From a virus, in IMG/VR virus record IMGVR_UViG_3300035181_001974: DNA of 46,874 nt, one strand, 5' to 3'. The notes beneath the pieces are model-generated. The model searched no databases and was not told where the DNA came from. It saw only the letters and a list, made by a program, of their open reading frames with translations. This document shows, piece by piece, positions 1 through 13,537 of this stretch (position 1 is the stretch's first letter; each line of letters opens with the position of its first letter). Made by a program: the position numbers and the translations under genes.

Positions 1-514
1 AGGTGTGAACAGGCATGCCGCCGAAGCCGGCGTCAAATGCGTGCGCTGCGTCCAGGATCATTGGAACGCTGTGAGCATTGCACACCTCACGGATGCCTCT
101 CAAGTCGGGCGGCGTGCCTGCCCAGGCCACAACCATTACAGCTCGAGTGTCGTCATCGATGGCGGCCTCGACTGTCTCAGGAGTGAGCATGCCTGTTTCA
201 GGGTCCACGTCGGCCCAGTTGATCCGCGCGCCCGCGGCTACGATCGGCGTGTTAGTCGCCACACACGTCATTGGCGTTGAGACGACGTTACAGCGATGAT
301 CGACGCCAGAGAGGTGCAGTGCCAGCGTCAGTGCTGAAGTGCAGCTGTTGACGAGAATCAGATTCTCGGCCTGCAGCTCGTGCTTCATGGCCGCGGTCAA
401 CTTGGTGACCTCGAGGCCTTCGTTGATGAAACCCGAAGCAAAGACCTTTTCGATCTCGTTAAGAGCCCGGGGCTTGTCCACGTGAACCTTGAACAGTGGG
501 TACGTCTTGCTCAC
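1..514 (-). CDS. PLP-dependent sugar aminotransferase, DegT/PseC family, 5' partial (N-terminal ~171 aa; rest lies beyond the window edge)
   Basis: Not in the ORF track. Hand translation of the minus strand from GTG at 514..512 gives VSKTYPLFKVHVDKPRALNEIEKVFASGFINEGLEVTKLTAAMKHELQAENLILVNSCTSALTLALHLSGV...VVSTPMTCVATNTPIVAAGARINWADVDPETGML, which matches the N-terminal architecture of DegT/DnrJ/EryC1 aminotransferases. GTG overlaps the TGA of the upstream dehydratase gene (GTGA). GGAGA sits 7 nt upstream. Confidence 0.6.
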   Translation of the reverse strand, partial: MSKTYPLFKVHVDKPRALNEIEKVFASGFINEGLEVTKLTAAMKHELQAENLILVNSCTSALTLALHLSGVDHRCNVVSTPMTCVATNTPIVAAGARINWADVDPETGMLTPETVEAAIDDDTRAVMVVAWAGTPPDLRGIREVCNAHSVPMILDAAHAFDAGFGGMPVHT

Positions 515-1542
515 TTGCGAATCTCCTCGATTGAACGACCCTCAAACTCATCCGACGACTTGTCGATGATGCCCAAGCGTGTCAAATGTTCTTTCAGCTG
601 GTTCTTGGTGAAGACCTGGTGATTGCTGGAGTATGTGAACGCATCATTTTTGCCTGCGAGGTGCGCTGGTCCGATGATGTAGTTCTGCTTGTCGTTGCTC
701 AATGTGGTGCGCACTGATTCAGATGCATTGATCAGGTCTTCGTGCATCTTTTCACCTGGACGCAGGCCGATGATCTTCACTTGTTTCCCGTGGCGCTCGG
801 CAAAGATTTCCGCGAGGTCGCCGATCTTCATGGCAGGCAGCCGCGGGATCCAGGTTTCACCCGACTCACCCTTTTTGAAAGCAGTCAAAATCAGATCGAC
901 AGAATCGTCGAGTGTCATGACGTACCTCGTCATATTCGGATCGGTGACAGTCAGGTAAGGCTGAGTCTCGGCTTGGTACTTGAACAGCGGAATGATACTG
1001 CCGCGTGATTCCAGGACGTTTCCATAGCGAACTGCCAGATAGCGTATCCACTGGTGACCCGTCATTGACTGACTGGTCACGACACGTTCTGAGGCGGCCT
1101 TGCACATGCCGTAGACGTTGACGGGTGCACACGCCTTGTCGGTAGAGACGAAGAGGCAAGCCTCGAGCCACGTTGGACGCAACTCATTCAAGGCATTGAC
1201 AACGTTGACAGTGCCTTGCAGGTTTGTGGCAATCGCCTCAGTGGGCGACAGTTCGCAGGTATCGACCTGCTTCAACGCAGCGGCGATGATAATGTGGGTG
1301 GGTTGAGTCTGGCGAATGACGTCCTTGACACGGGAAGGATCACGGATGTCGCCAACGTAAAACTTGAGATCAGAGGCACGAGGACGGGCCGCAAGCTCAT
1401 TGCGAATCGTCCAGTGTTTAGCCTCGTCCCGTGAATAGACAGCAACTTGATCGGGCGGCGACAACCGTTCGATCAGCTTTTTGCCCAGGGAGCCCGTTCC
1501 ACCGAAAATGAGGTACCGCGACATCTGTGGCCATTCTATCAC
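511..1542 (-). CDS. UDP-GlcNAc 4,6-dehydratase (PseB/FlaA1/CapD-like short-chain dehydrogenase); likely start at the internal Met (1524)
   Basis: FGGTGSLGK Rossmann motif, YSRDE, GDIRD, AAALKQV, STDKACAPVNVYG..K catalytic Y-x3-K, RYGNV..SRGS, IGLRPGEKMHE. These are collinear with H. pylori PseB/FlaA1. Confidence 0.85.
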   Translation of the reverse strand: MIEWPQMSRYLIFGGTGSLGKKLIERLSPPDQVAVYSRDEAKHWTIRNELAARPRASDLKFYVGDIRDPSRVKDVIRQTQPTHIIIAAALKQVDTCELSPTEAIATNLQGTVNVVNALNELRPTWLEACLFVSTDKACAPVNVYGMCKAASERVVTSQSMTGHQWIRYLAVRYGNVLESRGSIIPLFKYQAETQPYLTVTDPNMTRYVMTLDDSVDLILTAFKKGESGETWIPRLPAMKIGDLAEIFAERHGKQVKIIGLRPGEKMHEDLINASESVRTTLSNDKQNYIIGPAHLAGKNDAFTYSSNHQVFTKNQLKEHLTRLGIIDKSSDEFEGRSIEEIRK

Positions 1543-2399
1543 AGCCTGGTGACTTTGTACCCTTCGGGACCCACGATGTTGGCATAGCGGGTGCTCTTGT
1601 AACCAATCTTGGCAAGTTCTTCAGGCGTTGACCACGAGCCCGTCACAGTCTTGGTTCCCCAGCTCGCCGCGTCAGCATTGAAGATGCCACCATCGAGGAT
1701 GGCATTGATGGGATACTGCACGTAATACGCCCGCTGGAAATCTAGCTCAGAAAACTTGGGCATCCCGCGCAGCCTTCTGAATGACTCGACCATGGCTGAA
1801 TAACGATTGAGGGCAGGCAGCTGTGTCAGGAACGTTGTCTTCAGGATGCCGGGTTGTTCTGACTCTTCAAATGAAACGCGCTTGCCGTTGACCTTGTTGG
1901 TGTGCGACTGCCAGATGTTACGCCGTGATTCTGGTAGTGGCCGGTCTTTGTCGTAAAGGTGCCTGTTATCGTAGTCGTATTCATGGAGTCGAACTGCACC
2001 GATCTCTGGGTGGGTGTCGAGGTAGGAGGCTGCGGTCCAGATCTTGTTGAAGTCATAGTGCATCATGTCTGATTCGATGATGTACGTGTACTTCGGAGGA
2101 TCTGACTCTAACGAACGCAGCCACCAGTCGATGGCGGTCCAATAACCCACGTTGGAGTCTGCCACATAGACGTTCTTGAAGGCTCCGTAAAGCAACTCGT
2201 GAACGTCTGGTTGGTTTGAGGCATTGTCGAAGACCGTGAGATCAGTGACAAGCTCTGGCGCCTGTTCCTGAATGTTCTTGATGACAGACTTCAGGATCTC
2301 GACGCGGGTCGGCTCCAGGCAACACGTCACCATCAAGAATTTGACACTCACTCGCACCTCTTGATGGTGTATCCGTGAGGTTGAATCGTGATCTCGCAC
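1539..2399 (-). CDS. glycosyltransferase family 2-like protein (start uncertain: GTG 2399 or ATG 2333)
   Basis: VFDNASNQPDV (like DxGSTD) and IESDMMHYD (DxD-like) motifs. Coupled 4-nt overlap with the dehydratase gene. Confidence 0.45.
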   Translation of the reverse strand: MRDHDSTSRIHHQEVRVSVKFLMVTCCLEPTRVEILKSVIKNIQEQAPELVTDLTVFDNASNQPDVHELLYGAFKNVYVADSNVGYWTAIDWWLRSLESDPPKYTYIIESDMMHYDFNKIWTAASYLDTHPEIGAVRLHEYDYDNRHLYDKDRPLPESRRNIWQSHTNKVNGKRVSFEESEQPGILKTTFLTQLPALNRYSAMVESFRRLRGMPKFSELDFQRAYYVQYPINAILDGGIFNADAASWGTKTVTGSWSTPEELAKIGYKSTRYANIVGPEGYKVTRL

Positions 2400-2602
2400 T
2401 TGAATGTCCTGTCAGGTGGATGTTCGCTGCAGCAACACGAGCCAAATGCCATGACAGTCTCACCGGCCTCGAGTGCCTCAAACTCTCGTGGGTCCCAGAC
2501 TAGATCGTAGATCCGACTGTGGAACTCACCGTTCGATATGTGGCCTTTCTCCCATGTTTCGAGGGTGTGACGGACTTTCTCAGCCAGTTCTTCGTAGTTC
2601 AT
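2348..2602 (-). CDS. hypothetical protein (84 aa)
   Basis: ORF in the co-directional operon, with 4-nt overlaps to its neighbours. No recognisable motif. Confidence 0.35.
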   Translation of the reverse strand: MNYEELAEKVRHTLETWEKGHISNGEFHSRIYDLVWDPREFEALEAGETVMAFGSCCCSEHPPDRTFKCEITIQPHGYTIKRCE

Positions 2603-3516
2603 AGCGACTCGATCAATTTTCTATAGGGCTCATAACCCGCGGGAAGTTTCCATGCCTCTACGTTGGGAATTGCCGGCGTAGCGTTGAAGACATCATCAGC
2701 AATTGCAGAGGAAGGCAACACCTGTTCTGCGATGCCGACTGGCCTGGAGACTACTGGCACATTGAGCAGGCCACACTCGATCAATGACTGCGGGCCTCCC
2801 TCGTGACGTGCGGTGACCGGGTAAAGGTCAAGCGTCTGGTAGAGTTCATTGACCGTCTCGTGCGGGGGCCGTTCCAGGTAAGTGTACGGGACGCCCGCCT
2901 CTTCTAGACGTCCAATCAGGTACTGACGTCGCCAACCTGCCAGGACCACGTGTACCTTATCGTCGCCGATGATGCCTCGTTGGCGATGCTTCCGGATGAT
3001 GAAATCTGCGAGTAGATCAGGGCCCTTTTCGAGCTTTGGGCTCTTCAGGTCCTTACCTTCTGTGTCACGTTGGAATGAACCGATGACGTAGGCATCTGTC
3101 GGAATCCCGTACTTCTGCCGCAGCAATCCCTTGTCCAACGTCGGCAGCCAGATCTTCTGGTTGGCCCAGTACTTGATGAGATGGATAGGCTTTTCAGTCA
3201 AGGGTCTAATGAACGAGTGCGTCCGTTCGTTGTAAACGTGATAGGCTGTGGTCACCAGGTCGCGTTGCCTGAAATCATCGAGTTCCTTGAACCCAAATTT
3301 CTCTGGTGTGATGTGATGAACTGTGGTGATCACCTTTTTGTAACGCAACAATCCCGCGTTCGATAGACCTTCCCAACACCAGTCGGCCAACAACCAAACA
3401 ACGTGAGCGTCCTTGGGATGATAGACGCTGATGTCGGCATTGTCTTCGTTCCATTCCTTGACGAAGCGGTCGACGATCCAGTCTTCTTTGGGAGGCAGCA
3501 CGTAAACCTTGTTCAT
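2599..3516 (-). CDS. putative GT-B fold glycosyltransferase
   Basis: C-terminal HEGGPQSLIECGLLNVPVVS resembles the GT1/GT4 E-x7-E region. Start/stop-coupled to its neighbours. Confidence 0.4.
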   Translation of the reverse strand: MNKVYVLPPKEDWIVDRFVKEWNEDNADISVYHPKDAHVVWLLADWCWEGLSNAGLLRYKKVITTVHHITPEKFGFKELDDFRQRDLVTTAYHVYNERTHSFIRPLTEKPIHLIKYWANQKIWLPTLDKGLLRQKYGIPTDAYVIGSFQRDTEGKDLKSPKLEKGPDLLADFIIRKHRQRGIIGDDKVHVVLAGWRRQYLIGRLEEAGVPYTYLERPPHETVNELYQTLDLYPVTARHEGGPQSLIECGLLNVPVVSRPVGIAEQVLPSSAIADDVFNATPAIPNVEAWKLPAGYEPYRKLIESL

Positions 3517-4445
3517 GCGAGTACCGATTCGAACAGTTCAATGTAGCGCCGCGTGACATTCTTGATGTCGATGTCGGCGATGCTGGTATAGTCGAGATCG
3601 CGACGGTCTGGCAGGTCTTCGACCTGCCTCACATCGATCATGGGTGGATTATCGTAGTCCTCAAGCGTGTAGTCGTACGGCTGCTCCTGTAGGACGTGGC
3701 CATAAGAGCCGATGAGTTCCTTGGTTCCACCCACGGATGCGCATGCCACGGGAGTTCCTTGTGACAGAGCTTCTACGACAACGTTGGGGCAATGGTCAGC
3801 CCACGCTAGATGCAGCATCCATGAGGCTGCAGCATACACCTGCATGTAGACATCGGGACCAACAGGACCAGTGTAGAAGACGTGTGGGTCTGCCACACGC
3901 ACGTCAGGGTCCTTACCCATAATGATCAGGGCGCTGTTGGGCCGCTTCTCGCGGAGGTGCATGTAGAGTTCAACGTTTGACTTGAGGCGCTTCTGTGGGT
4001 GCCAATTCGAGCTGCAGACGTAGATGCGCTCATAATCATGCACCAATTTGCTCAGCGCCGGAATGGTCAACTCCTTGAGAGGCACCGTGTCGATCCCGTT
4101 GCGGATGACGGTGTGCCGGGTGACGCCTCCCCACCACTTCTCAACGAAGTTGCGATCAAATTCCGACTGAAAGACGACGGCGTCGGCGGCGCCGTACAAC
4201 GCCTTGATGTTCGAGTTCTTGGTGTGAAACTCTTCGGGTTTGAACCAGACGCCGTCTAGGCGCTGGACGACTTTCTTGGCAAGGGGTGCCCCACTGCGTT
4301 CGATGAAGACCAGTGAAACGTCGGCCTCGGCTACCGAGAGCGTCACCTCGTGTCCGCTCTCGAACAACCCACGGGCTAGGCGGCCTGCGAAGGTGTTGGG
4401 GCCGGACAAAGAGTTGAAATTGACACCGTCGAAGTGCACCTTCAT
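3513..4445 (-). CDS. glycosyltransferase family 4 (GT-B)
   Basis: NVVVEALSQGTPVACASVGGTKELI resembles the GT4 EGFGLVLLEAMACGLPVIA donor-binding motif. Confidence 0.65.
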   Translation of the reverse strand: MKVHFDGVNFNSLSGPNTFAGRLARGLFESGHEVTLSVAEADVSLVFIERSGAPLAKKVVQRLDGVWFKPEEFHTKNSNIKALYGAADAVVFQSEFDRNFVEKWWGGVTRHTVIRNGIDTVPLKELTIPALSKLVHDYERIYVCSSNWHPQKRLKSNVELYMHLREKRPNSALIIMGKDPDVRVADPHVFYTGPVGPDVYMQVYAAASWMLHLAWADHCPNVVVEALSQGTPVACASVGGTKELIGSYGHVLQEQPYDYTLEDYDNPPMIDVRQVEDLPDRRDLDYTSIADIDIKNVTRRYIELFESVLA

Positions 4446-4825
4446 GATCGACGCTTGATCTCCTGAATGATCGGCAACGAAAAGTCGGTCCCATGGAGCA
4501 TCATGCGCAACAATGCCAGCTCCTTGGTCTCGATGTTCTCCAGCCTGGCACGCTGCGAGAAGATGTTGGGATCGAGCTCATAGCGATTGTTGATGAGGAT
4601 GCTATCGTAGTACTGCTGCGCCACGTAGTTCATCGACTCATTGGTGATCTCGACCTGCGCGGCGGTGAAGACCTCGACGAGCGCGTCAAAGATGTCACCA
4701 TAGATCTGAGTGCAGACGTAGGGATTGAGGCCCTCCTCTGAACCCTCAGGTTTGATGTACTTCTTCAACTTCTCACCCAACAGCTGGGACACGGCCTCGT
4801 GGATTCCGACCTTCTTGTCACTCAT
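4442..4825 (-). CDS. hypothetical protein (127 aa)
   Basis: ORF coupled (4-nt overlaps) within the glycan operon. No motif recognised. Confidence 0.4.
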   Translation of the reverse strand: MSDKKVGIHEAVSQLLGEKLKKYIKPEGSEEGLNPYVCTQIYGDIFDALVEVFTAAQVEITNESMNYVAQQYYDSILINNRYELDPNIFSQRARLENIETKELALLRMMLHGTDFSLPIIQEIKRRS

Positions 4826-5757
4826 GGGTTCTCCGTGCGTAGGCTAGTGGCCTGCATGAATCTAACATACTCCTCGATGCATGTCTTCCAATCGCCCGTT
4901 GCAGCAGGATTCGGTCGGAAAACGCCTTTTTCGAGGATGAAGCGCAGCTCATTCCAGTCCTGGTAGACGTACTCATCTCCACAAGCGAACTCGACCGCGC
5001 CGCCGCCGTCCTTGTGCACGTAGGTTGGCAAGCCACAGGCAATCGATTCCAAGATGTGGTTGGGACCAGGATCGAACCTGGATGCTGACACATAGACATC
5101 ATGGCGACCCAGTTCTTCACCGAGTTTCTTGCCGTACAGCGGCCTCACAACCGTGGTGTGCTTAAAGTCGCACTTGTGTCGACCGATGTACGTGAAGGCG
5201 AACTTCTTGGGTTGAGCTCCGACGAAGCGATCAATTTCTTCGTAGATGTCGGCACCCTTCAACGGGTTGTCTGACCAGTGATGGGCCGCGATGTGCACCT
5301 TGCCGTCGTTGAACTTGTTCGCAGGGGCAAAGATGGTTGAATCGACCCCATTTTTGATGACGGTGTTGTTGGAGCAATTCCATCCTTTTTTCTCGAAATA
5401 TTTCTGCAGCCATCTCGAGACAAACACCGTGCCGTCGACGTACTCCGAGAGCTTCAAAAGGTATTCGTCGACCCCCGTAGTCCCCTTCCGGGCATCATTT
5501 TCGTTGACGCGGAGGACGATGCGAATGTCGCGGTGACCCGTCATGTGTAGCTTGTACATGACCGCCTGCTCAGCTGAGATGCCACCAGCCTCGCTGTCAA
5601 GGCCCGCGAGCAGGATGATATCGGGTGCCACCTGACGCTCATCAGCGGGAACCACTTCATGGCCCAATTCAGGAATGTGTTCGTAGGCAGCATTAATGAA
5701 GTGTGCGCCACCTCCCCAAGGTCCCCTAATCGGTCGACGATTGATGTAGACTCGCAC
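4822..5757 (-). CDS. GT-B fold glycosyltransferase (GT4-like)
   Basis: HILESIACGLPTYVHKDGGGAVEF is a GT4-like C-terminal motif. Confidence 0.55.
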   Translation of the reverse strand: MRVYINRRPIRGPWGGGAHFINAAYEHIPELGHEVVPADERQVAPDIILLAGLDSEAGGISAEQAVMYKLHMTGHRDIRIVLRVNENDARKGTTGVDEYLLKLSEYVDGTVFVSRWLQKYFEKKGWNCSNNTVIKNGVDSTIFAPANKFNDGKVHIAAHHWSDNPLKGADIYEEIDRFVGAQPKKFAFTYIGRHKCDFKHTTVVRPLYGKKLGEELGRHDVYVSASRFDPGPNHILESIACGLPTYVHKDGGGAVEFACGDEYVYQDWNELRFILEKGVFRPNPAATGDWKTCIEEYVRFMQATSLRTENP

Positions 5758-6421
5758 GTGCTTCTCGCTCTTTCTGTCGACGAAGCTTTTGTGCTTCGCT
5801 ACGACGACGCTTGGTTTCAGGATTCTGAGACGTTTGTCTCATGTTGTTCTTTGCTTGTTCGCTGATCGTACGACCACGTAATTTTTCACTACGTTTACGT
5901 CGAGACTCTTCCGAATGTTTAACCCCCATGCCGGACTCAACACACCTTTTCGACCCCATTGTGGGTTGTTCTATCCGGAGAGGCGGTCACCGATGGTACG
6001 TCGAATTTTCTCGACAGATTCTGGAGTGTGGTTGTGACCATAGAACGGGTTTGCTACGCCCGACAAAGTGCCACCATCACCGCCCAGGGTCATGTTATAC
6101 CCAAAGCCGCCAACAAGTGCACAGGTGTTATATTCAGCAATGAACTTAACTTCGAGTCGTTTTGCTTCTTCGAACGTTTCGACCCGTGCCAACACCTCCC
6201 GCCGCCACACGTCATCTGACGTACCGTGTTTACACTTTTTAGTGTCTGTGAACGTGATGTGTTTCGTTGTTTCACTTCGTGACCGCATCACACCTGCTGC
6301 ATGAATCAGATTGATAACGCCAGAGTAACTGATGTCAACACCCGCGCCCTAAAGGCGTTCCAGGATGCCAACTGACGACAGCTTTTCATTGACGTACATG
6401 TCAACAATTGACTGACACACT
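5726..6421 (-). pseudogene. decayed GIY-YIG-type homing endonuclease with NUMOD3 repeats (in-frame amber stop at 6351..6349 plus a frameshift near 5960)
   Basis: Track ORFs 6349..6675 (its 3' part) and 5971..6291 are in the same frame and separated only by TAG. The read-through gives ...ISYSGVINLIHAAGVMRS...EYNTCALVGGFGYNMTLGGDGG..NPFYGHNHTPESVEKIRRTIG. ORF 5726..5959, in another frame, carries two more G-x-x-[HI]S-x-E-x-x-K NUMOD3-like units (GRTISEQAKNNMRQ, NPETKRRRSEAQKLRRQ). Confidence 0.4.
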
Positions 6422-7249
6422 TCAGGTGGATGCTTTGTGTGATGACGTCTGTAGACCTTCTTCCCACGGTTTTCCTTGGGCAACGTAACCTCTTCCGCGC
6501 AAGAAGTCAGCTTCTGCTTTTTGAAACTTTGCGTCATCAGTCTGATAAACAGCACCGCCGCGCTCATCAATGGTATAGTGATACATGACGCGTGGAACAA
6601 ATCCACGCCTCTTTGCATTATGCAACACCGGGAGATAAAGGCTTTGGTCGCCGGCCCTACGAACAAGATCACCATTCATATTGGTAAAGTTTTCGTAAGG
6701 TACGCCATTCAGAAGGCTCTTACGAAAGGTCTTTAGGTGGCTGGAGACCCACGGGTATTTGTACGGGTCAGCATCTCCGGGCATCGGAGCTGAGATGTTC
6801 TTGTCAGTAAAACCCCAACGATGTGCCGTCCACAGGGCGTCTGCGCCGCTCTGGTTGTAGAGAACGTTTAGGTACGTCAGAGCATCGAGCTCTGTCAACC
6901 AATCGTCCGCGTCAATGCGACAGACGATGTCGCTGTCCTCACACTCCTGCAGACCTCTGAGGACGTTGGCAACCTCCCACTTCTTCTCAGCGTTCCAGAT
7001 TGTAGTGACACGGCCAGAATTGAGGTGATCGAAGCGTTGCAGCCAGTCTTTTGCGTTGGCTACATGCACAGAATCGGACACATCATCGATCAGGACGATC
7101 TTCCAGTTGTCATATGACTGCCCATAGATGCTGTAAAGCATCCTGGGCAATGTTTCCGATGCATTGAACATCGGTGCCACAAAACAAAACCTATTTTGGT
7201 GTTCTGGCATGATGGTACACGTACCCTTTTGCAGATTCACGATGACCAT
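6422..7249 (-). CDS. glycosyltransferase family 2 (alternative start at ATG 7210)
   Basis: FCFVAPMFNASETL...YGQSYDNWKIVLIDDVSDS is a classic GT2 N-terminal segment. DADDW resembles the DxD motif. Confidence 0.7.
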   Translation of the reverse strand: MVIVNLQKGTCTIMPEHQNRFCFVAPMFNASETLPRMLYSIYGQSYDNWKIVLIDDVSDSVHVANAKDWLQRFDHLNSGRVTTIWNAEKKWEVANVLRGLQECEDSDIVCRIDADDWLTELDALTYLNVLYNQSGADALWTAHRWGFTDKNISAPMPGDADPYKYPWVSSHLKTFRKSLLNGVPYENFTNMNGDLVRRAGDQSLYLPVLHNAKRRGFVPRVMYHYTIDERGGAVYQTDDAKFQKAEADFLRGRGYVAQGKPWEEGLQTSSHKAST

Positions 7250-7324
7250 TCAAAACTTGCAAGATCATTGATCTGCTGACGCCCATTTTCATGGCAGCCT
7301 CTTTGATCGAAGAAAGGCTTATTG

Positions 7325-8050
7325 TCACCAGTCGTCACGGGAAACACCGCCCTTTGTCAGGAGGACCTGACCGTAGTCGACCTGATCGTCAGTGAACCGA
7401 CGATCGTCGAAAAACATCCTGCGATCCATGATGATCAGTTCCTTCGACGGGTCATCAACCTCGTCGATCAGGTCGCGGCACTGGATGCCTGGGTCGTTCT
7501 TCGACGGCAGATGATAGTCGTCAAAGAGAAGGCATTTGTTCCAGCGATCCTTGGTCAGCTCCCAGTCCAGCCGCGTGCCGGCATACGAGTGGTCGCCATC
7601 GATGTAGACGAAGTCGAAGGAACCCTCGAGCTTCGGAATGAGGTCTCCCGAGGTTCCCTTCATGAACTGCACGTGCTTGAACCAATCATGAGGAAAGACC
7701 TGGCTTAGCATCTTGATGTAGTCCTCATTGAGGGCAGGATCGATGGTGATGATCTTGCCTTCGACGCCTGCATCTGAGAAGGCCCGAGCCGCACAGAAGG
7801 TTCCGTAGCCGCGGCCAAATCCGATCTCGAGCATTGACGTGATGCCCAATGATCGGATGAGATGATAGATCAGGATGCCACGCTCATAGTTTGAACGGTA
7901 GAACGCGCCGTACTTCTTGTAGTTGGGGTCATCCAGACCACGCTGACGTTCAGCAGTGAATCGACCGATGTAGTCGAAGTCGCCCATCACCACTGACCCC
8001 GGATCGACTCCGAGTGATTCGAGCTTTTGCTGGATCGTGATCTTCTTCAT
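7325..8050 (-). CDS. class I SAM-dependent O-methyltransferase (TylF/CmcI-like)
   Basis: MLEIGFGRGYGTFCAARA (motif I), KIITIDPA, FVYIDGDHSYAG. Confidence 0.75.
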   Translation of the reverse strand: MKKITIQQKLESLGVDPGSVVMGDFDYIGRFTAERQRGLDDPNYKKYGAFYRSNYERGILIYHLIRSLGITSMLEIGFGRGYGTFCAARAFSDAGVEGKIITIDPALNEDYIKMLSQVFPHDWFKHVQFMKGTSGDLIPKLEGSFDFVYIDGDHSYAGTRLDWELTKDRWNKCLLFDDYHLPSKNDPGIQCRDLIDEVDDPSKELIIMDRRMFFDDRRFTDDQVDYGQVLLTKGGVSRDDW

Positions 8051-8132
8051 CTTTGGTTTCCTCGGAATCTCAATCTTGGTGGGTCAACACTGGCAGTCAT
8101 CAACATCATAGCAGCAACTGCCACGACTGTCT

Positions 8133-8474
8133 TTAGGCGCTGCCATTCGACCACTCGCCTTCCAACTTGCGATACTCGATCGGGTGACCGAGCTCCTGGG
8201 CATGAGCGATGCCGTACTCCATGCCCTTACTCATGCCGAGGTCAGTGTACACGACAGTCTTATCTGAGGCCTCACGCCATGCAAAGCCAGCGGCGATGCC
8301 GTGCATTCGCTCGTCAGTGACGTCATCGCGGAGGACGCCTTCCTGAGTGTACAGTGCGTGGCTCGCGTATGGACTCTCACCTCTCGCTAGACAGTCACGC
8401 ATGCAGGCCCTGACGTACCGCATGTTCTTGTCAATGTCGCCAGCATAGGGCGACTCGATGATGACGCGGATCAT
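8133..8474 (-). CDS. DUF4406 / nucleoside 2-deoxyribosyltransferase-like fold protein (start placed at MIRVII, not the track's 8645)
   Basis: RVIIESPYAGD...CLARGESPYASH...VVYTDLGMSKGMEYGIAHAQELGHPI matches the DUF4406 pattern (KLYLAGPMRG...RARGHEVFSP...GWENSRGA..E). The truncated start avoids overlap with 8492..10399. Confidence 0.4.
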   Translation of the reverse strand: MIRVIIESPYAGDIDKNMRYVRACMRDCLARGESPYASHALYTQEGVLRDDVTDERMHGIAAGFAWREASDKTVVYTDLGMSKGMEYGIAHAQELGHPIEYRKLEGEWSNGSA

Positions 8475-8491
8475 CTTGGGAAAAGGCTTTC

Positions 8492-10399
8492 TCACTTCAA
8501 CATCACCTTGGGTTGCGTACGGGCGACAGAGATGTGAGGAATCTTGACCTTGCCGTCCCATTTGCGGTGCCAGATCCAGCCACCGAGCTTGTCCTTGAGC
8601 TCCTTTGCACGAGCTTCGATCATCTCGTCGGTGACCTGTGACCACGGGACATCGAACATCATGTTATTCTCTGCAACGTCGGAAGTGTCCCTGCCCCACA
8701 GGCCGTTCCAGTGGTTCTGCCAGTAGTCACGGTAGAGGCGGATCTTACGAGGAAGATCGTACCATGAGTAGTGGAAGACGCAAGGCAGTCGGTTCACTGC
8801 AGCGTTGAACCACAACTGATACTGGAGGAGGGCGTTGTTGTCGCCCATGATCGCAAATTGTCTGACGCGTTCCACGTCAGGTGTGTAGAACGACACGTGA
8901 GGCAGACGCTCGCCAGTCTCTTTGTCGATCATGTCGCAACCATCAGTGCCAGGCAGCGCCATCGGGTGCCCGTCTGCATCAGTGGTTCGTAGTTCACGGG
9001 GAATCCCGTGAGTGATGTTGGGCTTGTTACGCGACAGCCGCCACTTCCACGGCTGAATGTCAACGCGAACCTTTTCGGGTCCGCCCCAATACTCGATGAC
9101 GGGCAGTGACAACACGTCTGCCTCGCGGGGAATCTTACGGCACAAGTCGATCACCTTTGCTGCGTCGTCCTCGTGAACGATCTCGTCGGAGTCCATCTGC
9201 CAGCAGTACTCACTGGTGCACATTGCTCGGGCTTCGGCCTTTTGCATGCCGTCAAAGACCGCGTGACGTGGATGAGACCAATCTCGCGGAACCTGCTTGA
9301 CTTTGAGGATCGGATCAGTCGAAGCCAAGAACTGCAACGCTTGCCAGGTACCGTCAGTGCTACCACCGTCGACTACGCAAATCTCGTCGCAGAACTCTGC
9401 CATCGACAAGATAGCCTCCTTCCACGGGTACTTTTGGGTGACGCAGTTGTAGACGGTCATGTAGCCCGAGATGGTGGGCTTGTAGTCCATCATGTGCTTG
9501 ACACCATTCCAAAACATGGCGCGGGCTGCAAACAGATAATCCTTGATGCTTTCGAGATCATCGGTGTTGAACCATTCCTCGTCCTTGTGTTGGACGTGGT
9601 CGTTGAGGTGTAGCTTGCAACCCAATAGCTTGGCTTCAATGACCATGCGAGGGCAGGTGTCTGCCCCATTCGGCAGGTAGACAAAGCCTTCTGCCTTCGA
9701 GAGTTGCTCGAGTAGCTCGTGGTAGGGAACGTTCCAGACCACGTGGTAGTCCTTGCCGTTGTCCATGCACCACTTCTCAGCAGCACCGGCACCCTTGACC
9801 CAAGAGTTCGAACCCAGGACAATCCACCCCTTGCGTTCCGCAGGTGCGTTGGCACGCAGTTTCTCGATGAGGCCCAAGGTTTCAGGTGAAAAGACGCTAG
9901 AGAGGACGACGTTGTCCTTTTCTGCCAAGAATGGGAATACTGCGTGGTAGCGTTCCTTCTGCTTCTCTGACATCCACCAGAGCCCCAAGGAACCATAGTA
10001 GAACGCGGAGACCAGCTTGCCGTTGTTCTGGTTGTGACAGTCACAAGGAGTCTTCGTGGCGTCAAAGTGCTTCTCTGGAGAACGGAAGCGACAGTACTTG
10101 TAGTCGTACTCGAGGACCGTGTACTTCAGGTTGGCAACGATGCTGGGGATCAACTGGGGATTAATGTCAGCGAAGTTGCCGAAGATCCAGAACTTGTCAG
10201 CTCCCTGTTCAAGGGTCTGCAGCGTCAGGTCACGAGTGTGCAACTTCTGCACCTTGACGGGACTGGAATCGATGAGTGCCTGCGATGTGAGTTCCGCACC
10301 TCCGACGTAGTCTTCGACGAACATGTCTGAGACAAAGACGACCTTTGCGTCATCTGCGATGCGAGCGACTGGGGATTTGAAGATCTGTTCGTCGAACAC
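8492..10399 (-). CDS. large bifunctional glycosyltransferase (N-terminal GT-B-like region plus C-terminal GT2 domain)
   Basis: C-terminal MTVYNCVTQKYPWKEAILSMAEFCDEICVVDGGSTDGT is a GT2 signature. N-terminal EGFVYLPNGADTCPRMVIEAKLLGCK is GT-B-like. Confidence 0.6.
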   Translation of the reverse strand: MFDEQIFKSPVARIADDAKVVFVSDMFVEDYVGGAELTSQALIDSSPVKVQKLHTRDLTLQTLEQGADKFWIFGNFADINPQLIPSIVANLKYTVLEYDYKYCRFRSPEKHFDATKTPCDCHNQNNGKLVSAFYYGSLGLWWMSEKQKERYHAVFPFLAEKDNVVLSSVFSPETLGLIEKLRANAPAERKGWIVLGSNSWVKGAGAAEKWCMDNGKDYHVVWNVPYHELLEQLSKAEGFVYLPNGADTCPRMVIEAKLLGCKLHLNDHVQHKDEEWFNTDDLESIKDYLFAARAMFWNGVKHMMDYKPTISGYMTVYNCVTQKYPWKEAILSMAEFCDEICVVDGGSTDGTWQALQFLASTDPILKVKQVPRDWSHPRHAVFDGMQKAEARAMCTSEYCWQMDSDEIVHEDDAAKVIDLCRKIPREADVLSLPVIEYWGGPEKVRVDIQPWKWRLSRNKPNITHGIPRELRTTDADGHPMALPGTDGCDMIDKETGERLPHVSFYTPDVERVRQFAIMGDNNALLQYQLWFNAAVNRLPCVFHYSWYDLPRKIRLYRDYWQNHWNGLWGRDTSDVAENNMMFDVPWSQVTDEMIEARAKELKDKLGGWIWHRKWDGKVKIPHISVARTQPKVMLK

Positions 10400-10497
10400 T
10401 GTGTGCCTCTTTGCGAGACTCTACCCCATGGTGTGTCCCAGTGTTCAAGTCTTCGAACCCGTGAATGATGCGCGCGACGTATTACTTAATTGCGGAA

Positions 10498-10640
10498 CTG
10501 CTCCTTAGCTCTTAATCGAACTGTGGACTGCTCTTAAATTTCAACATCTAGTTTAGATCTGCTTAAGAACTCTTAATCGAACTGTGGACTGCTCTTAAAT
10601 TTAACGTCTAGCTTAAGACTGCTTAATAGCTCTTAATCTT
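10498..10640. repeat. iteron-like array: five CTGCT(C)TTAA motifs at 30-31 bp phasing inside two 61-bp tandem direct repeats (10509-10569, 10570-10630) plus a partial third
   Basis: Read directly. ctcttaatcgaactgtggactgctcttaaattt occurs at 10509-10541 and 10570-10602. The CTGCT(C)TTAA motifs start at 10498, 10528, 10559, 10589 and 10619. The region is AT-rich and lies between divergent gene blocks. Confidence 0.8.
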
Positions 10641-10693
10641 AAGTCTTAATCGGGCGTATACCCGCGATTCGTCGACGCGAGAAGGACCAACTG

Positions 10694-11230
10694 ATGCCCA
10701 CCAAAAAGCCAGGAAGTGCACGAGGATCTGCAGCTCGTTTGATTGGAACAGACCTAGACACGACCCGAGTCCTTGCAGAGATTCAACAGAAGGTGAACTC
10801 CTCTCCGGCACTCAACGGCGGGTTCGACACCCTTCTGTACAAGGTTGACAAGATCGAAGAGTCGCAGGGCAAAATCGTCTCGACTGTCGACAAGATCCAC
10901 GCGGCGATCTATGAACCTGACACGGGCCTCTTCTCCAGGATCAACACCGTGCAAGCCACAGCGTCCAAAGAAAATGGCGAACTTGAGAAGCAGTTGATCG
11001 AGCTAAACACCTGGAAGGCACAGACCGAGAAGTCAGCCCAGGAAGACAAAACGTCAGATGAAGCTCTGGTCAAGAAAGTCGAAGAGCAGCAGAAAGTCAT
11101 CGAGCAATTGACACAGTGGAAGGCCACAGTTTCAAAGGTCGGTGCATGGATCGGTATGGGATTCGGCGGTGGCGCTGTCACTTTGCTTTTCAAGATCCTG
11201 TATGATGTATTGACGACACACTGGAAGTGA
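10694..11230 (+). CDS. coiled-coil protein with a C-terminal transmembrane segment
   Basis: GAAGGA Shine-Dalgarno 8 nt upstream. Heptad-rich EKQLIELNTWKAQTEK..., then a hydrophobic VGAWIGMGFGGGAVTLLFKILY. Confidence 0.55.
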   Translation: MPTKKPGSARGSAARLIGTDLDTTRVLAEIQQKVNSSPALNGGFDTLLYKVDKIEESQGKIVSTVDKIHAAIYEPDTGLFSRINTVQATASKENGELEKQLIELNTWKAQTEKSAQEDKTSDEALVKKVEEQQKVIEQLTQWKATVSKVGAWIGMGFGGGAVTLLFKILYDVLTTHWK

Positions 11231-11233
11231 GCG

Positions 11234-12484
11234 GTGTACTATGGTCCCGTGAACTCTGGGACCCAAGTCTACCTCCAGGACGACGTTAGAGCGGCATTGC
11301 ACCGCCTCGTTGGACGTCTGCGGCTACTAACGCAGAAAGTTCAGGATGATGTTCTAGTCTCTAGGGATGATCGTAGCCTTATCCATACCCGGTTCCAGAT
11401 GTTGTTCAACCTGCGTTTGGCTGATCCACTCGAGGCCAGGCTACTAGAAATCATCATCGGCCATGCGGTAGCGGCTGAGAAGATGGGACCCGGTGCCTTC
11501 GACATGACTCTCGAGAGGCTGCTAGAAATCATCGAACTGTTCTTGAAGGGTATTACGCCACTTGATTTTCAAATAAATCAGAATGTCATCTCGAGGCCGG
11601 CGACCGCAGACGATATTCGAAGGTGTGTCATTGATCGTGTTAAGAAGGTCGACAAGGTCGCCGGCGACATGTTGACAGATGCGTTGGAACTTGCGGGTTT
11701 CGGCGGGCGTATCATCGTAGAGAAGACGCATGCATTGATGCCGTCTGTCGAACTATCGCGTGGATATTCGTTTGACACGGTGGCTGCCTGGCAGCTGACA
11801 GCTCGTCTCGAGCAACCCAGGGCTCTCGTTATCGATGGTTACATCGAACAGGTCTCAGAGATTCATCACCTCCTCGAGGCGGCCAATGAGGCCAAAGAAC
11901 CCATCATCATGTTCGTCAGAGGCCTGTCACAGGAGGTACTTCACACTCTGAAGGTCAACTTCGACAGAGGTTCTTTGAAGGTCGTTCCAATCATCGTCAA
12001 GTTCGACCTCGAGGGAATTAACTCTGTCAACGATCTAGCGATCGTCACGGGCTGTGACCTCATTTCCAGCAATAAGGGTGACCTCATCTCTGCCATCAAG
12101 TTCGAGTCAGCACCACGGATCGAGGCTGCCCTCGTCTATCCCAACAAGGTGGTGTTGCAGCACTCAGCCACTCGAGCTCGTGTTGCAGAACACGTGGCAT
12201 TTCTTCGTGATAAACGCAGCAAGTCGAACGTGATCGAAGACGTTGGCAAGCTCTATGACAAACGAATCCGCTCTCTATCACCGAGTCACGTGGTGATGCG
12301 CCTGCCAGACAACAAAGACTTTGTCAGAGTCTCACAGTCGATTGACGTGGCGCTGAGAACCATCAAATCATTGGTCGATCATGGTGTGACAGCCGAAATG
12401 CCGACGGCCGCCAGGGTGGCGGCCGCGGTGCATGCGCAGAAGTGCTACGAGACCTTGGCCTCGCTAGGTGCGCTGCTTGTCTGA
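11234..12484 (+). CDS. divergent truncated chaperonin (GroEL/Cpn60-like; intermediate and apical domains present, GDGTTT nucleotide-binding motif and C-terminal equatorial domain absent)
   Basis: LSRGY aligns with GroEL [55 protein letters not shown] aligns with GroEL [62 protein letters not shown] aligns with [26 protein letters not shown] aligns with AVAAGMNPMDL. The position matching GDGTTTATVLA reads [11 protein letters not shown]. Confidence 0.65.
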   Translation: [416 protein letters not shown]

Positions 12485-13537
12485 CTTTTTGATTTCAGCG
12501 AGCACACGCTCCACATCGTAGAGGTTCAACCCTTCTTTGCGAATACTGTAGCCCATCTTCTTGCCCAGGTCGCGGATGGCAGCAATGACCCTAGCCGCAT
12601 CGTCAGCTTTGATCTTGTTGGGCAAACGGGCCGCCAATCGACCAGCGAGGTCCTTGACTTGATCGTCGTTTAGGCCCTCACCACCGGCCTTGGGTGCCTC
12701 AGCGGGCTTCTCGTTGCTCTTGGCGGCAGGAGTTTCGCCTGAGGTCGTCGGTGATGCGGTCTTTGCTCCGCTGGGAGCCTCGCCTGACTTGCTCTCGCCA
12801 GATTTTTTCTCTCCACTGACGTTGGCACCCTTTTTCAAATCGTCTTTCAGTTCTGGTGCAATGTCAGCGGTCTTGGGACCGGCCTCGATCGTCTGCTGCG
12901 CCTGCGTCAAGGCCGCGATGGGCGACGTCATGATGTCGTTGACGAGACCTTGAACGTCTGCGTAAGGCAGTTTCTTGAAGGCTCCAAAGAGGCCACCAGG
13001 CGTGAATGCCTTTATCAGCATGCCTTGAGCAGCTTGAATTTTGTCATTTGCTCCCGGCGTGCCAGCGGCAACGTTGTCGCCGCCAAGGCGGTCCTTGAGG
13101 CTGTCGCCTTCTGCCTTTTCGATCTTCAAATTCTTGACAATCTTTGGCAGCAGCTGAAACCCACGTTCCAGTGCGCTCGCAAGAGCCATCGCCTTGACAA
13201 TCGGATTTTCGCCGCCTGACAGCTTCGACTTCATCTTCTGCCAGGCTCGACCGATGCTTCCACCGCCCGTGTATTTGTTGATGTCGTTGGTTGCTGCGTC
13301 GACTGCGGCCTTCAAGGACTTGGCGTTGGGCAGCTTTGACACGAGATTTTCGAGCTTGTCGAGGACGGCGGATGCCTTGTTGAGCTCCTCTTCGTCCATC
13401 GCCTCAACGATCAAGCGGGCTACGCGGTGCTCTTCGAGCAATTCAGCATTGATCCGTGAGACTTTTTCCTGAAGGCGCTGCAACCTGCGAGCCTCGTACT
13501 TCTCTTTGAGCGTAATGGCCATTTTATTGTTCCTCAC
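12464..13537 (-). CDS. hypothetical Ala/Lys-rich coiled-coil protein (antisense to all neighbouring genes)
   Basis: 1074-nt ORF with a strong AAGGTGAGGAA Shine-Dalgarno upstream of the ATG at 13537. The plus strand here has only three short unrelated ORFs. Confidence 0.6.
   Translation of the reverse strand: MRNNKMAITLKEKYEARRLQRLQEKVSRINAELLEEHRVARLIVEAMDEEELNKASAVLDKLENLVSKLPNAKSLKAAVDAATNDINKYTGGGSIGRAWQKMKSKLSGGENPIVKAMALASALERGFQLLPKIVKNLKIEKAEGDSLKDRLGGDNVAAGTPGANDKIQAAQGMLIKAFTPGGLFGAFKKLPYADVQGLVNDIMTSPIAALTQAQQTIEAGPKTADIAPELKDDLKKGANVSGEKKSGESKSGEAPSGAKTASPTTSGETPAAKSNEKPAEAPKAGGEGLNDDQVKDLAGRLAARLPNKIKADDAARVIAAIRDLGKKMGYSIRKEGLNLYDVERVLAEIKKSDKQRT

Follow-up and report, generated by a model that had tools for sequence, protein, structure and literature searches.

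The first 10,399 nucleotides of the IMG/VR virus record IMGVR_UViG_3300035181_001974 (positions 1-10399 of the window, which is the whole stretch analyzed, 46,874 nucleotides) form a single uninterrupted minus-strand coding block that carries a glycan biosynthesis operon. Within the window, the block encodes seven glycosyltransferase (GT) domains spread over six proteins, together with a predicted nucleotide-sugar dehydratase and the 5' part of an aminotransferase. In this phage, the module measures about 14.9 kb and contains at least 18 genes, since contigs L100 and L108 extend it past the window start and the end of the block is visible in the closest relative. Because identical proteins sit on a 309-kb contig (309,481 bp), the operon belongs to a jumbo phage with a genome of at least 309 kb. 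Related loci show that the module is ancestral to a clade of such phages, and its constant, phage-specific member is a 635-amino-acid (aa) fusion protein, here called big635. We hold with moderate confidence that the module serves cytoplasmic glycosylation of a phage protein, probably a virion protein, and that it resembles the systems of the Megavirinae and the chloroviruses.

Organization of the operon

In the direction of transcription, the window part of the block encodes the 635-aa protein, a DUF7768 protein, a methyltransferase, a GT2 protein, the fragments of a homing endonuclease, a 311-aa GT-B protein, and a 127-aa protein, followed by a 310-aa GT-B protein, a 305-aa GT-B protein, an 84-aa product, a 270-aa protein, a 343-aa dehydratase, and the aminotransferase. 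The initial annotation, which was made from the sequence alone, had described a minus-strand block of nine genes. The block stands, but the count does not: there are 12 intact genes plus the 5' fragment of the aminotransferase gene, because the 84-aa and 127-aa open reading frames (ORFs) had been left out. The overlapping start and stop codons described there were found again as 4-bp (A/G)TGA overlaps at seven successive junctions, from the 311-aa gene to the aminotransferase gene. The block was also said to run opposite to all core genes; it does lie on the minus strand, but so does the gene at 12464-13537.

That this glycan operon is part of a phage genome was confirmed by the rest of the window, which encodes a T4-type terminase, an intein-bearing portal, a prohead protease, a primase, and SbcCD, as well as a helicase, PhoH, and a GroEL-like protein. 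The helicase shares only about 30% identity with its counterparts in jumbo phages G, XacN1, and Tunturi_5. A megablast search with the block and a tblastn search with big635 gave no match in 50,697 deposited phage genomes, and thus there is no cultured relative from which annotation could be transferred.

Glycosyltransferases

The first gene of the block (8492-10399, minus strand) encodes big635, which had been proposed to be a bifunctional GT-B plus GT2 protein. The predicted fold and a Pfam GT2 match on the C-terminal half confirmed a GT-B plus GT-A fusion. Residues ~20 to 305 form a GT-B (GT4-like) domain with the motif DTCPRMVIE, and residues ~310 to 635 form a GT-A (GT2) domain with a helical extension, in which residues 328 to 436 match Pfam GT2 with 38.8 bits. 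The N-terminal domain gave nothing significant in profile searches against PDB sequences; it has the two Rossmann-like domains and the C-terminal (D/E)x7E motif of GT-B/GT4 enzymes. The best match of the GT-A half was the peptide glycosyltransferase SunS, with 16% identity and a template modeling (TM) score, target normalized, of 0.46. T4 AGT appeared at rank 27, far beneath GT4 sugar and lipid enzymes.

Several further features of big635 were observed. Its N-terminal GT-B half holds, in residues 103 to 121, the invariant positions C103, H111, C119, and C121, which suggests a structural zinc site, unusual for GT4 enzymes; the cluster is retained even by split and re-fused versions of the protein. 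Domain shuffling was seen on contigs L076, L078, L079, and L080 (at about 9998-11620), in which the GT-B domain of big635 is joined to one resembling the 275-aa GT2 protein to give about 540 aa, and on contig L077 (2754-4659), in which the two halves are separate neighboring genes of 298 and 334 aa.

Two other proteins are GT-A enzymes. The GT2 protein (6422-7249, minus strand; 275 aa, or 262 aa from the ATG at 7210) matches Pfam Glycos_transf_2 with 49.7 bits and, weakly, TuaG, EpsE, and WcaA. It has no membrane segment (maximum 19-residue hydropathy, 0.66), and the absence of membrane helices ruled out a GtrB-type membrane transferase. The 270-aa protein (1539-2351, minus strand) had no Pfam, PHROG, or NCBIfam match, and its assignment comes from the predicted structure (AlphaFold2; predicted local distance difference test score, 92), which has a GT-A fold. 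A Foldseek search of the PDB retrieved SpsA (9e-7), TarS, TarP, B4GALNT1, and ppGalNAc-T2, with E values of 1e-6 to 1e-5 and TM scores of about 0.5 for SpsA, TarS, and ppGalNAc-T2; a profile search against PDB sequences returned only ppGalNAc-T2, nonsignificantly. The FDNAS motif and the DxD-like ESD motif (E93, S94, and D95) are invariant, the family N termini support the GTG start, and all 252 homologs are metagenomic.

The remaining three transferases are GT-B/GT4 proteins, and the (D/E)x7E motif is common to all four GT-B domains of the block. The 310-aa protein (3513-4445, minus strand) matches Pfam Glyco_trans_1_4 with 42.6 bits, Glycos_transf_1 with 39.6 bits, and phrog_2170 at 1e-12, and it carries the motif DHCPNVVVE. 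The 311-aa protein (4822-5757, minus strand; DPGPNHILE), which has sub-cutoff Pfam matches and matches phrog_2170 at 5e-11, is a full-length paralogue of the 310-aa protein (hhalign probability, 97%; E value, 3.5e-11). The 305-aa protein (2599-3516, minus strand) has two sub-cutoff matches, to Glyco_trans_1_4 (E value, 2e-5) and Glycos_transf_1 (9e-5), and hhalign related it to the 310-aa family with a probability of only 16%. With its invariant EGGPQSLIE (Ex7E) it is probably a GT-B enzyme, and it is the weakest GT assignment of the block. In the closest relative (contig L109, 290-1922), the ortholog of this gene is split: residues 1 to 122 and 107 to 305 are encoded in two different frames, and an intact gene for a 221-aa GIY-YIG/NUMOD3 endonuclease lies between the two parts, an arrangement that may be an intron or a split gene.

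Nucleotide-sugar synthesis

The 343-aa product of the gene at 511-1542 (minus strand) is a short-chain dehydrogenase with a Pfam Polysacc_synt_2 match of 262 bits. Its closest solved homolog was 4TQG (245 bits, 43% identity over 311 residues), relative to which the STDKA and YGxxKA motifs are retained; 4TQG is Mg534 of Megavirus chilensis (PMC10117803). Every bacterial structure scored 186 bits or less, among them PseB/FlaA1 of H. pylori (176 bits) and the retaining PglF (WlaL; about 106 bits). These matches point to a UDP-N-acetylglucosamine (UDP-GlcNAc) 4,6-dehydratase of the inverting (5-epimerizing) PseB/FnlA/CapE/Mg534 class, and the position of Mg534 as the closest solved homolog hints at a common origin of phage and giant-virus sugar genes. 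The best NCBIfam model was PseB (TIGR03589), at 258 bits versus a cutoff of 408, and the FnlA model scored 192 bits.

The aminotransferase gene starts with a GTG at 514, overlapping the dehydratase stop by 4 bp (GTGA), and 171 codons of this 381-aa gene lie in the window (1-514, minus strand), where the fragment matches Pfam DegT_DnrJ_EryC1 with 124 bits. For the full-length gene, taken from contigs L001 and L100, the best NCBIfam model was PseC (TIGR03588), at 226 bits versus a cutoff of 423. Among solved structures, the order was AtmS13 (228 bits), CalS13 (186), ArnB (139), PseC (107), and PglE (68), in line with a DegT-family C4-aminotransferase acting on a nucleoside diphosphate (NDP)-4-keto-sugar.

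The initial annotation had read this pair as the PseB- and PseC-like first two enzymes of a nonulosonate-type pathway. The Pse models are indeed the best-matching ones, but both proteins score far beneath the equivalog cutoffs, and the nonulosonate part is unsupported: the PseB, PseC, and PseH models all stay below cutoff, and no product of the block matched PseI/NeuB, PseG, or PseF in Pfam or NCBIfam. A PseH-type GNAT is absent from this phage, in which a 239-aa gene directly follows the aminotransferase gene (L001 and L100); in relatives, a GNAT is inserted right after the aminotransferase gene, and its best model is PseH, at 52 bits versus a cutoff of 93. NeuB did not rank among the 25 Pfam families most frequent in 148 accessory clusters from relatives, and CTP_transf_3 occurred in 3 of those clusters. 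Given the sub-cutoff Pse models and the lack of a NeuB/PseI, PseG, or PseF match, we rejected a complete pseudaminic acid pathway for the sequence seen. A bacillosamine-type pathway (PglF/PglE/PglD) was rejected as well, with PglF at about 106 bits versus 245 for Mg534 and PglE at 68 bits; the NeuD/PglB/VioB model reached only 22.7 bits on the hexapeptide-repeat protein described below, for which the WcaF type was best, at 46 bits. Since the Pse models are sub-cutoff and no NeuB/PseI was seen, we limit the claim to a UDP-4-amino-4,6-dideoxy-N-acetylhexosamine (HexNAc)-type sugar, of whatever configuration and acylation, which is the supported prediction for the product.

Continuation beyond the window start

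Two independent contigs, L001 (Logan) and L100 (JGI), run past the window start and are 100% identical over the shared first ~5.6 kb. L100 is 100% identical to window positions 1-5661 and adds about 4.5 kb, with five complete genes and the start of a sixth, a 131-aa gene completed by L108. Both contigs carry the full 381-aa aminotransferase gene, so two earlier expectations were met, namely, that this gene continues outside the window and that the island is larger than the part first seen.

The 239-aa protein encoded right after the aminotransferase has a weakly GT-A-like N-terminal half; hhalign related that half alone to the GT2 family with 28% probability, and a PDB-sequence profile search found nothing significant. 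Like the 239-aa protein, a 305-aa protein of the extension (distinct from the 305-aa GT-B protein) received no assignment: the PDB profile search gave nothing significant, and hhalign showed no relation to the GT-B family. The 264-aa hexapeptide-repeat acetyltransferase is closest to WcaF-type O-acetyltransferases. A 319-aa NDP-sugar dehydrogenase (L100, 8732-9691) passes the TIGR03026 cutoff but covers model positions 2 to 294 of 413 and is without the C-terminal domain; its about 27 to 35 related sequences are mostly of ~290 to 355 aa.

The last gene of the block (L100, 9688-10065; L108, 1257-1652) overlaps the dehydrogenase gene by 4 bp and encodes a 131-aa truncated paralogue of the T4-type major capsid protein. 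Over 117 residues, it shares 48% identity with a genuine capsid fragment, and homologs of 131 to 133 aa (L109, 10001-10402; L098, 20094-20498) carry the T4 g23 major-capsid hidden Markov model PF07068. The paralogue could mimic an acceptor, act as an adaptor, or be no more than a fragment that was kept. The closest relative also has this small capsid paralogue; the next gene there encodes a dual-specificity phosphatase, and the one after it lies on the opposite strand, which marks the end of the codirectional block.

Conservation in related phages

At least 105 IMG/VR viral contigs, the longest of 369 kb, carry a homolog of big635, mostly full length and with 38 to 75% identity, and homologs also make up at least 120 metagenomic clusters at 90% identity. 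Among 185,579 bacterial and archaeal species genomes, by comparison, only six short metagenome-bin contigs carried it, and none of the isolate bacterial genomes did. Gene order was compared over 79 fetched loci, and prevalence was counted over the 63 loci that had 9.5 kb or more of downstream sequence. On one flank, dozens of loci have the helicase, the protease, p162, sometimes m357, the GroEL-like gene, and p178 (the plus-strand 178-aa gene across the intergenic region from big635). On the divergent side follow big635, sometimes DUF7768, the methyltransferase, the GT2 gene, the 311-aa GT-B gene, the 127-aa gene, the 310-aa and 305-aa GT-B genes, the 270-aa GT-A gene, the dehydratase gene, and the aminotransferase gene. 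The GT2 protein occurred in 46 of the 63 loci, the 310-aa GT in 42, the 311-aa GT in 38, the 127-aa protein in 35, the 305-aa GT in 34, and the methyltransferase in 25.

Around this conserved core, the periphery is hypervariable. A Pfam census of the 148 accessory clusters gave mostly methyltransferases (seven families) and additional GT2 and GT1 enzymes, together with nucleotidyl- and cytidylyltransferases, oxidoreductases, epimerases, radical-SAM enzymes, sulfotransferases, and cupins.

The opposite orientation of the block relative to most of its neighbors and the endonuclease remnant inside it are what a recent accessory island, or an assembly chimera with host DNA near position 10400, would look like, and the initial annotation had indeed proposed an acquired accessory island. 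We give this explanation next to no credence. GC content is practically equal (0.540 in the block versus 0.533 in the rest of the window), the gene order beside p178, the GroEL-like gene, p162, the protease, and the helicase recurs in full in dozens of contigs, and the junction between p178 and big635 is found in independent assemblies from different samples. Additionally, the Logan and JGI contigs are 100% identical over the window start, and the endonuclease is private to this phage, with relatives carrying theirs at other positions. Because the module recurs at the same locus in dozens of independent contigs, it is ancestral to the jumbo-phage clade, and there is no host chimera at ~10400.

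Methyltransferase, small proteins, and endonuclease remnant

The 241-aa class I S-adenosylmethionine (SAM) methyltransferase (7325-8050, minus strand) matches Methyltransf_24 with 52.7 bits and Methyltransf_3 (O-methyltransferase family 3) with 24.4 bits, in agreement with the O-methyltransferase first proposed, and its weak PDB matches are also to family-3 O-methyltransferases. Its inferred role would be sugar O-methylation. The 113-aa protein at 8133-8474 (minus strand; ATG at 8474, 17 bp past the big635 stop) had been called DUF4406-like, which proved incorrect: only PF24963 (DUF7768; 105 bits) matched even at an E-value limit of 10, and PF14359 did not. A profile search against PDB sequences gave no match for this protein, an accessory member found in only about 10 relatives.

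The conserved 127-aa protein (4442-4825, minus strand) had no match in Pfam, PHROGs, NCBIfam, or a PDB profile search; an alignment of 26 sequences contains 17 invariant positions. In relatives, its gene lies beside GT-B genes, mostly between the 311- and 310-aa ones, and tandem duplicates are frequent. The 84-aa ORF (2348-2602, minus strand), called as a gene on L100, has 4-bp overlaps at both ends and is thus translationally coupled on both sides; a homolog was found in the closest relative only.

The embedded homing-endonuclease remnant noticed initially is present, as a decayed GIY-YIG/NUMOD3-type gene at 5726-6291 (minus strand) in two ORF fragments, 5971-6291 and 5726-5959, which match phrog_314 at 6e-11 and 3e-3. 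It can be aligned only from about residue 57 to 61 of the intact 231- to 281-aa copies in relatives, and therefore the first ~60 residues, with the GIY-YIG motifs, are gone. The insertion, between the GT2 and 311-aa genes, is private to this phage, and the endonucleases of relatives sit elsewhere.

Proposed route and acceptor

We propose the following mechanism, each step of which is drawn from homology and context. The dehydratase would convert host UDP-GlcNAc to UDP-4-keto-6-deoxy-HexNAc with inversion at C5, and the DegT aminotransferase would then yield UDP-4-amino-4,6-dideoxy-HexNAc. In relatives, the PseH-like GNAT would N-acetylate the amino sugar, whereas this phage instead has the WcaF-like hexapeptide acetyltransferase; the C-terminally shortened NDP-sugar dehydrogenase could supply a uronic acid. 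At least seven GT domains, four GT4-like of the retaining type and three GT2-like of the inverting type, possibly joined by the 239-aa protein, would assemble a hetero-oligosaccharide directly on a soluble acceptor, with the chain tailored by the O-methyltransferase and the acetyltransferase. The big635 fusion may start the glycan on a conserved phage protein and then lengthen it, and the more variable downstream enzymes may diversify the chain. The likeliest acceptor would be a virion structural protein, so that the product would be a glycan coat comparable to the fibrils of the Megavirinae, the Vp54 glycans of chloroviruses, and the O-glycans on mycobacteriophage capsids and tails.

A soluble route is indicated by what the module encodes. 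None of 19 products contains a predicted membrane helix (maximum 19-residue Kyte-Doolittle hydropathy, ≤1.43), and among 1102 module ORFs from ~98 related loci, only 3 singleton clusters had more than one hydrophobic segment. Flippases, polymerases, and priming phosphoglycosyltransferases were not recognized in the block or among the commonest accessory Pfam families of relatives. Sequential soluble glycosylation in the cytoplasm is the simplest model, and flagellin, chlorovirus Vp54, the fibril proteins of the Megavirinae, and mycobacteriophage capsid and tail proteins receive their glycans in this way.

The initial annotation had offered virion glycosylation and, alternatively, remodeling of the host surface for superinfection exclusion; the former is kept as the most plausible role, and the latter appears less likely, since predicted membrane helices are absent from the 19 products and polytopic proteins are nearly so from the 1102 ORFs. 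Remodeling of the host envelope is a doubtful alternative, though one with some chance of being right. Soluble enzymes would then work at the inner membrane face on host undecaprenyl-linked, lipopolysaccharide-core, or teichoic acid intermediates, which could exclude superinfection, prevent progeny from readsorbing to lysing cells, or alter lysis timing. Many of the nearest structural relatives of the module GTs do act on host lipid-linked or wall-polymer acceptors. PglA, WaaG, PimA, TarS, and TarP have the same folds and use membrane lipid- or polymer-linked acceptors without being integral membrane proteins, so that the absence of membrane segments is compatible with the use of a host carrier, which weighs against our preferred route. 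However, no priming phosphoglycosyltransferase, flippase, polymerase, ligase, or GtrA/GtrC-type protein is found here or recurs in the ~98 related loci, and the GT2 protein is without the membrane helices of GtrB. Surface conversion is a trait of temperate phages, whereas this module is a fixed ~15-kb core of a lytic-type jumbo genome, with big635 in phage contigs only. Dependence on a carrier lipid would also be unexpected across phages of very different GC content (intergenic GC ranges from 0.11 to 0.57 over the relatives) and probably of different hosts.

The acceptor could also be something other than the virion, such as an intracellular protein of host or phage, or a free or secreted glycoconjugate, modified for takeover or counterdefense. 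This is unlikely in our judgment. SunS, the best GT-A match, glycosylates a secreted peptide; two accessory clusters of relatives match the "GT4 in conflict systems" family; the 127-aa operon protein could be a dedicated acceptor or chaperone; and a dual-specificity phosphatase ends the block in the closest relative. Yet a single target rarely requires at least seven GT domains, dedicated nucleotide-sugar synthesis, and hypervariable tailoring, and no leader-peptide or export genes accompany the module.

DNA hypermodification, in which the GTs would decorate hydroxymethylated pyrimidines with an unusual oligosaccharide against restriction or CRISPR, is very unlikely. A cytosine C5-methyltransferase, a TET/JBP dioxygenase, and a dNMP hydroxymethylase were not found in the window, and these partner enzymes are outside the 25 commonest Pfam families of the accessory clusters. 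The methyltransferase is of the small-molecule O-methyltransferase type and not a DNA methylase, T4 AGT ranks well under the GT4 sugar and lipid enzymes, and at least seven GT domains with amino-sugar synthesis go far beyond any known DNA glycan. That a methylated amino-sugar oligosaccharide is placed on the phage's own DNA, with the hydroxymethyl-pyrimidine pathway encoded elsewhere in the ~260-kb remainder of the genome, has a slimmer chance still; it would take the 5hmC modifications, known as mono- to trisaccharides, to a glycan made by at least seven transferase domains with their own nucleotide-sugar supply.

Glycosylation of a structural protein thus remains our preferred reading, and several observations lean toward it, although they are suggestive only: big635 is invariant and phage-only, its GT-A half is SunS-like, tailoring is hypervariable, head-morphogenesis genes adjoin the module, and a capsid paralogue ends the operon. 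Accessory content that varies this much is what one sees with a surface glycan that is exposed and diversifying, and at least seven GT domains imply a chain longer than the mono- to trisaccharides reported on phage DNA; these two points also only suggest. A precedent for phage virion glycosylation is cited in PMC12619734.

Other points count against this reading. No acceptor was identified, and the major capsid and tail-tube genes lie outside the window and the fetched contigs; a scan for the true major capsid gene gave at least 599 contigs, and none of the 80 listed coincides with a module contig. There is no cultured relative and hence no virion chemistry. The likeness to SunS is modest at the identity and TM score given above, the prediction leaves the stereochemistry and N-acylation of the sugar free, the GNAT of relatives is absent here, the NDP-sugar dehydrogenase is without its C-terminal domain, and the assignments of the 305-aa GT-B protein and the acetyltransferase come from subthreshold scores.

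Neighboring genes and the divergent intergenic region

Between the 635-aa gene and p178 lies a divergent intergenic region (10400-10693). It holds a 61-bp tandem repeat in 2.2 copies at 10509-10638 (Tandem Repeats Finder score, 207; 90% match), the 30-mer core of which is found in this single locale only. Of the 15 TTAAGA/TCTTAA hexamers in the 46.9-kb window, 9 are within 10510-10649, and relatives have short TTAAGA-type tandem repeats at the equivalent intergenic position. Scans for sigma-70-like promoters and intrinsic terminators found no enrichment over shuffled sequences. The array of repeats and hexamers is probably a conserved promoter or operator for the module.

The gene at 11234-12484 encodes a 416-aa product that matches the phage GroEL family phrog_5725 (5e-15 over ~215 residues) and has no Pfam Cpn60 match; it appears to be a short, divergent chaperonin-like protein, and its gene adjoins the module in 41 of 55 relatives. 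The minus-strand gene at 12464-13537 encodes a 357-aa coiled-coil-like protein with a low-complexity tract rich in Ser, Thr, Pro, Ala, and Lys. It lies among head genes, 2 kb from the module, and is kept in ~17 to 21 relatives; speculatively, the protein could be a scaffold or an O-glycosylation acceptor. The portal gene (42225-46736) encodes 1503 aa of the T4 gp20 type, and its sequence is broken up by two intein splicing domains, both of which contain an HNH_3 endonuclease. Ten large neighboring plus-strand ORFs had no match in Pfam or PHROGs, with the exception of a 635-aa ORF at 27112-29019, which gave a marginal match to a PHROG of unknown function.

Comparison with known glycosylation systems

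A self-sufficient glycosylation machinery is treated as a hallmark of giant eukaryotic viruses. Virus-encoded glycosylation is already known; what is new here is that an operon on the scale of giant-virus systems is conserved in a lineage of tailed phages, with a GT-B plus GT-A fusion not described before as its anchor and with several families that have no annotation. The phage virion-glycosylation cases that we compared involve few transferase genes, whereas the set described here is comparable to that of giant viruses and occurs in a widespread uncultivated lineage. If the product coats the virion, this would bear on adsorption, on detection, and on the resistance of abundant environmental phages to grazing, proteases, and immune recognition, and glycoengineering would gain a set of new GT families and rare-sugar enzymes. 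The 43% identity to Megavirus Mg534 bears on the source of the "bacterial-like" sugar genes of giant viruses.

Flagellin glycosylation islands with the pseudaminic acid pathway (PseB, C, H, G, I, and F) share soluble cytoplasmic O-glycosylation with our model, and the Pse models are the top-scoring ones. In contrast, the phage is without a Maf/FlmG-type transferase, and its Pse scores are far sub-cutoff. The DNA hypermodification clusters described by Pyle et al. combine a cytosine methyltransferase with a 5mYOX/TET dioxygenase and add one to three sugars (bioRxiv 2023.12.21.572611). The likeness lies in metavirome GT clusters recruited from lipopolysaccharide and teichoic acid enzymes, sometimes beside structural genes (bioRxiv 2023.12.21.572611), but the phage module has a far larger GT set, and neither defining enzyme is present in the sequence examined.

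Among phages, the "moraphage" lineage of uncultivated aquatic jumbo phages has four core orthogroups that are putative GTs of unknown role, and it shares a T4-like portal, PhoH, a UvsW-type helicase, and a protease with the phage studied here (PMC12619734). That paper describes no operon, sugar pathway, or 635-aa fusion. In the mycobacteriophages Che8, Corndog, and Myrna, phage GTs glycosylate capsid and tail-tube subunits in the cytoplasm and shield the virion (PMC12619734, citing Freeman et al. 2023), and a Che8-species phage has two putative GTs (PMC11256854). These systems consist of few GT genes in the ~60-kb to mid-size genomes of cultured actinophages. To our knowledge, they include no nucleotide-sugar pathway.

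Closer in gene content and logic is chlorovirus PBCV-1, whose own cytoplasmic GTs (A064R, A061L, A075L, and others) assemble a methylated oligosaccharide attached to the major capsid protein. Of these, A064R is a multidomain transferase of 638 aa that contains two GT domains, and the glycan is completed by a separate class I methyltransferase (PMC9614988; PMC11571054). A064R combines a GT-A domain, a novel GT domain, and a methyltransferase domain, whereas big635 is a GT-B plus GT-A fusion with the methyltransferase encoded by a separate gene, and the two have no sequence relationship. The glycosylation genes of chloroviruses are scattered, while those of the phage lie in one operon.

The fibril clusters of the Megavirinae (Mimivirus, Moumouvirus, and Megavirus), like the phage module, combine a UDP-GlcNAc 4,6-dehydratase, a DegT aminotransferase, an acetyltransferase, and several GTs. 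They also contain multidomain GTs, methyltransferases, and sulfotransferases, and their content is clade specific (PMC10117803); relatives of the phage module likewise have sulfotransferases and many methyltransferases, with varying content. The differences are that the phage is tailed and has a bacterial host, that its GTs are not orthologous to those of the Megavirinae, and that big635 has no deposited homolog. In the Mg534 pathway, a 4-reductase acts next, leading to L-RhaNAc/L-QuiNAc, whereas in the phage an aminotransferase would follow. Overall, the phage has the marks of a giant-virus-type system, with its own nucleotide-sugar enzymes and seven GT domains in one block, conserved in its lineage and with clade-specific content.

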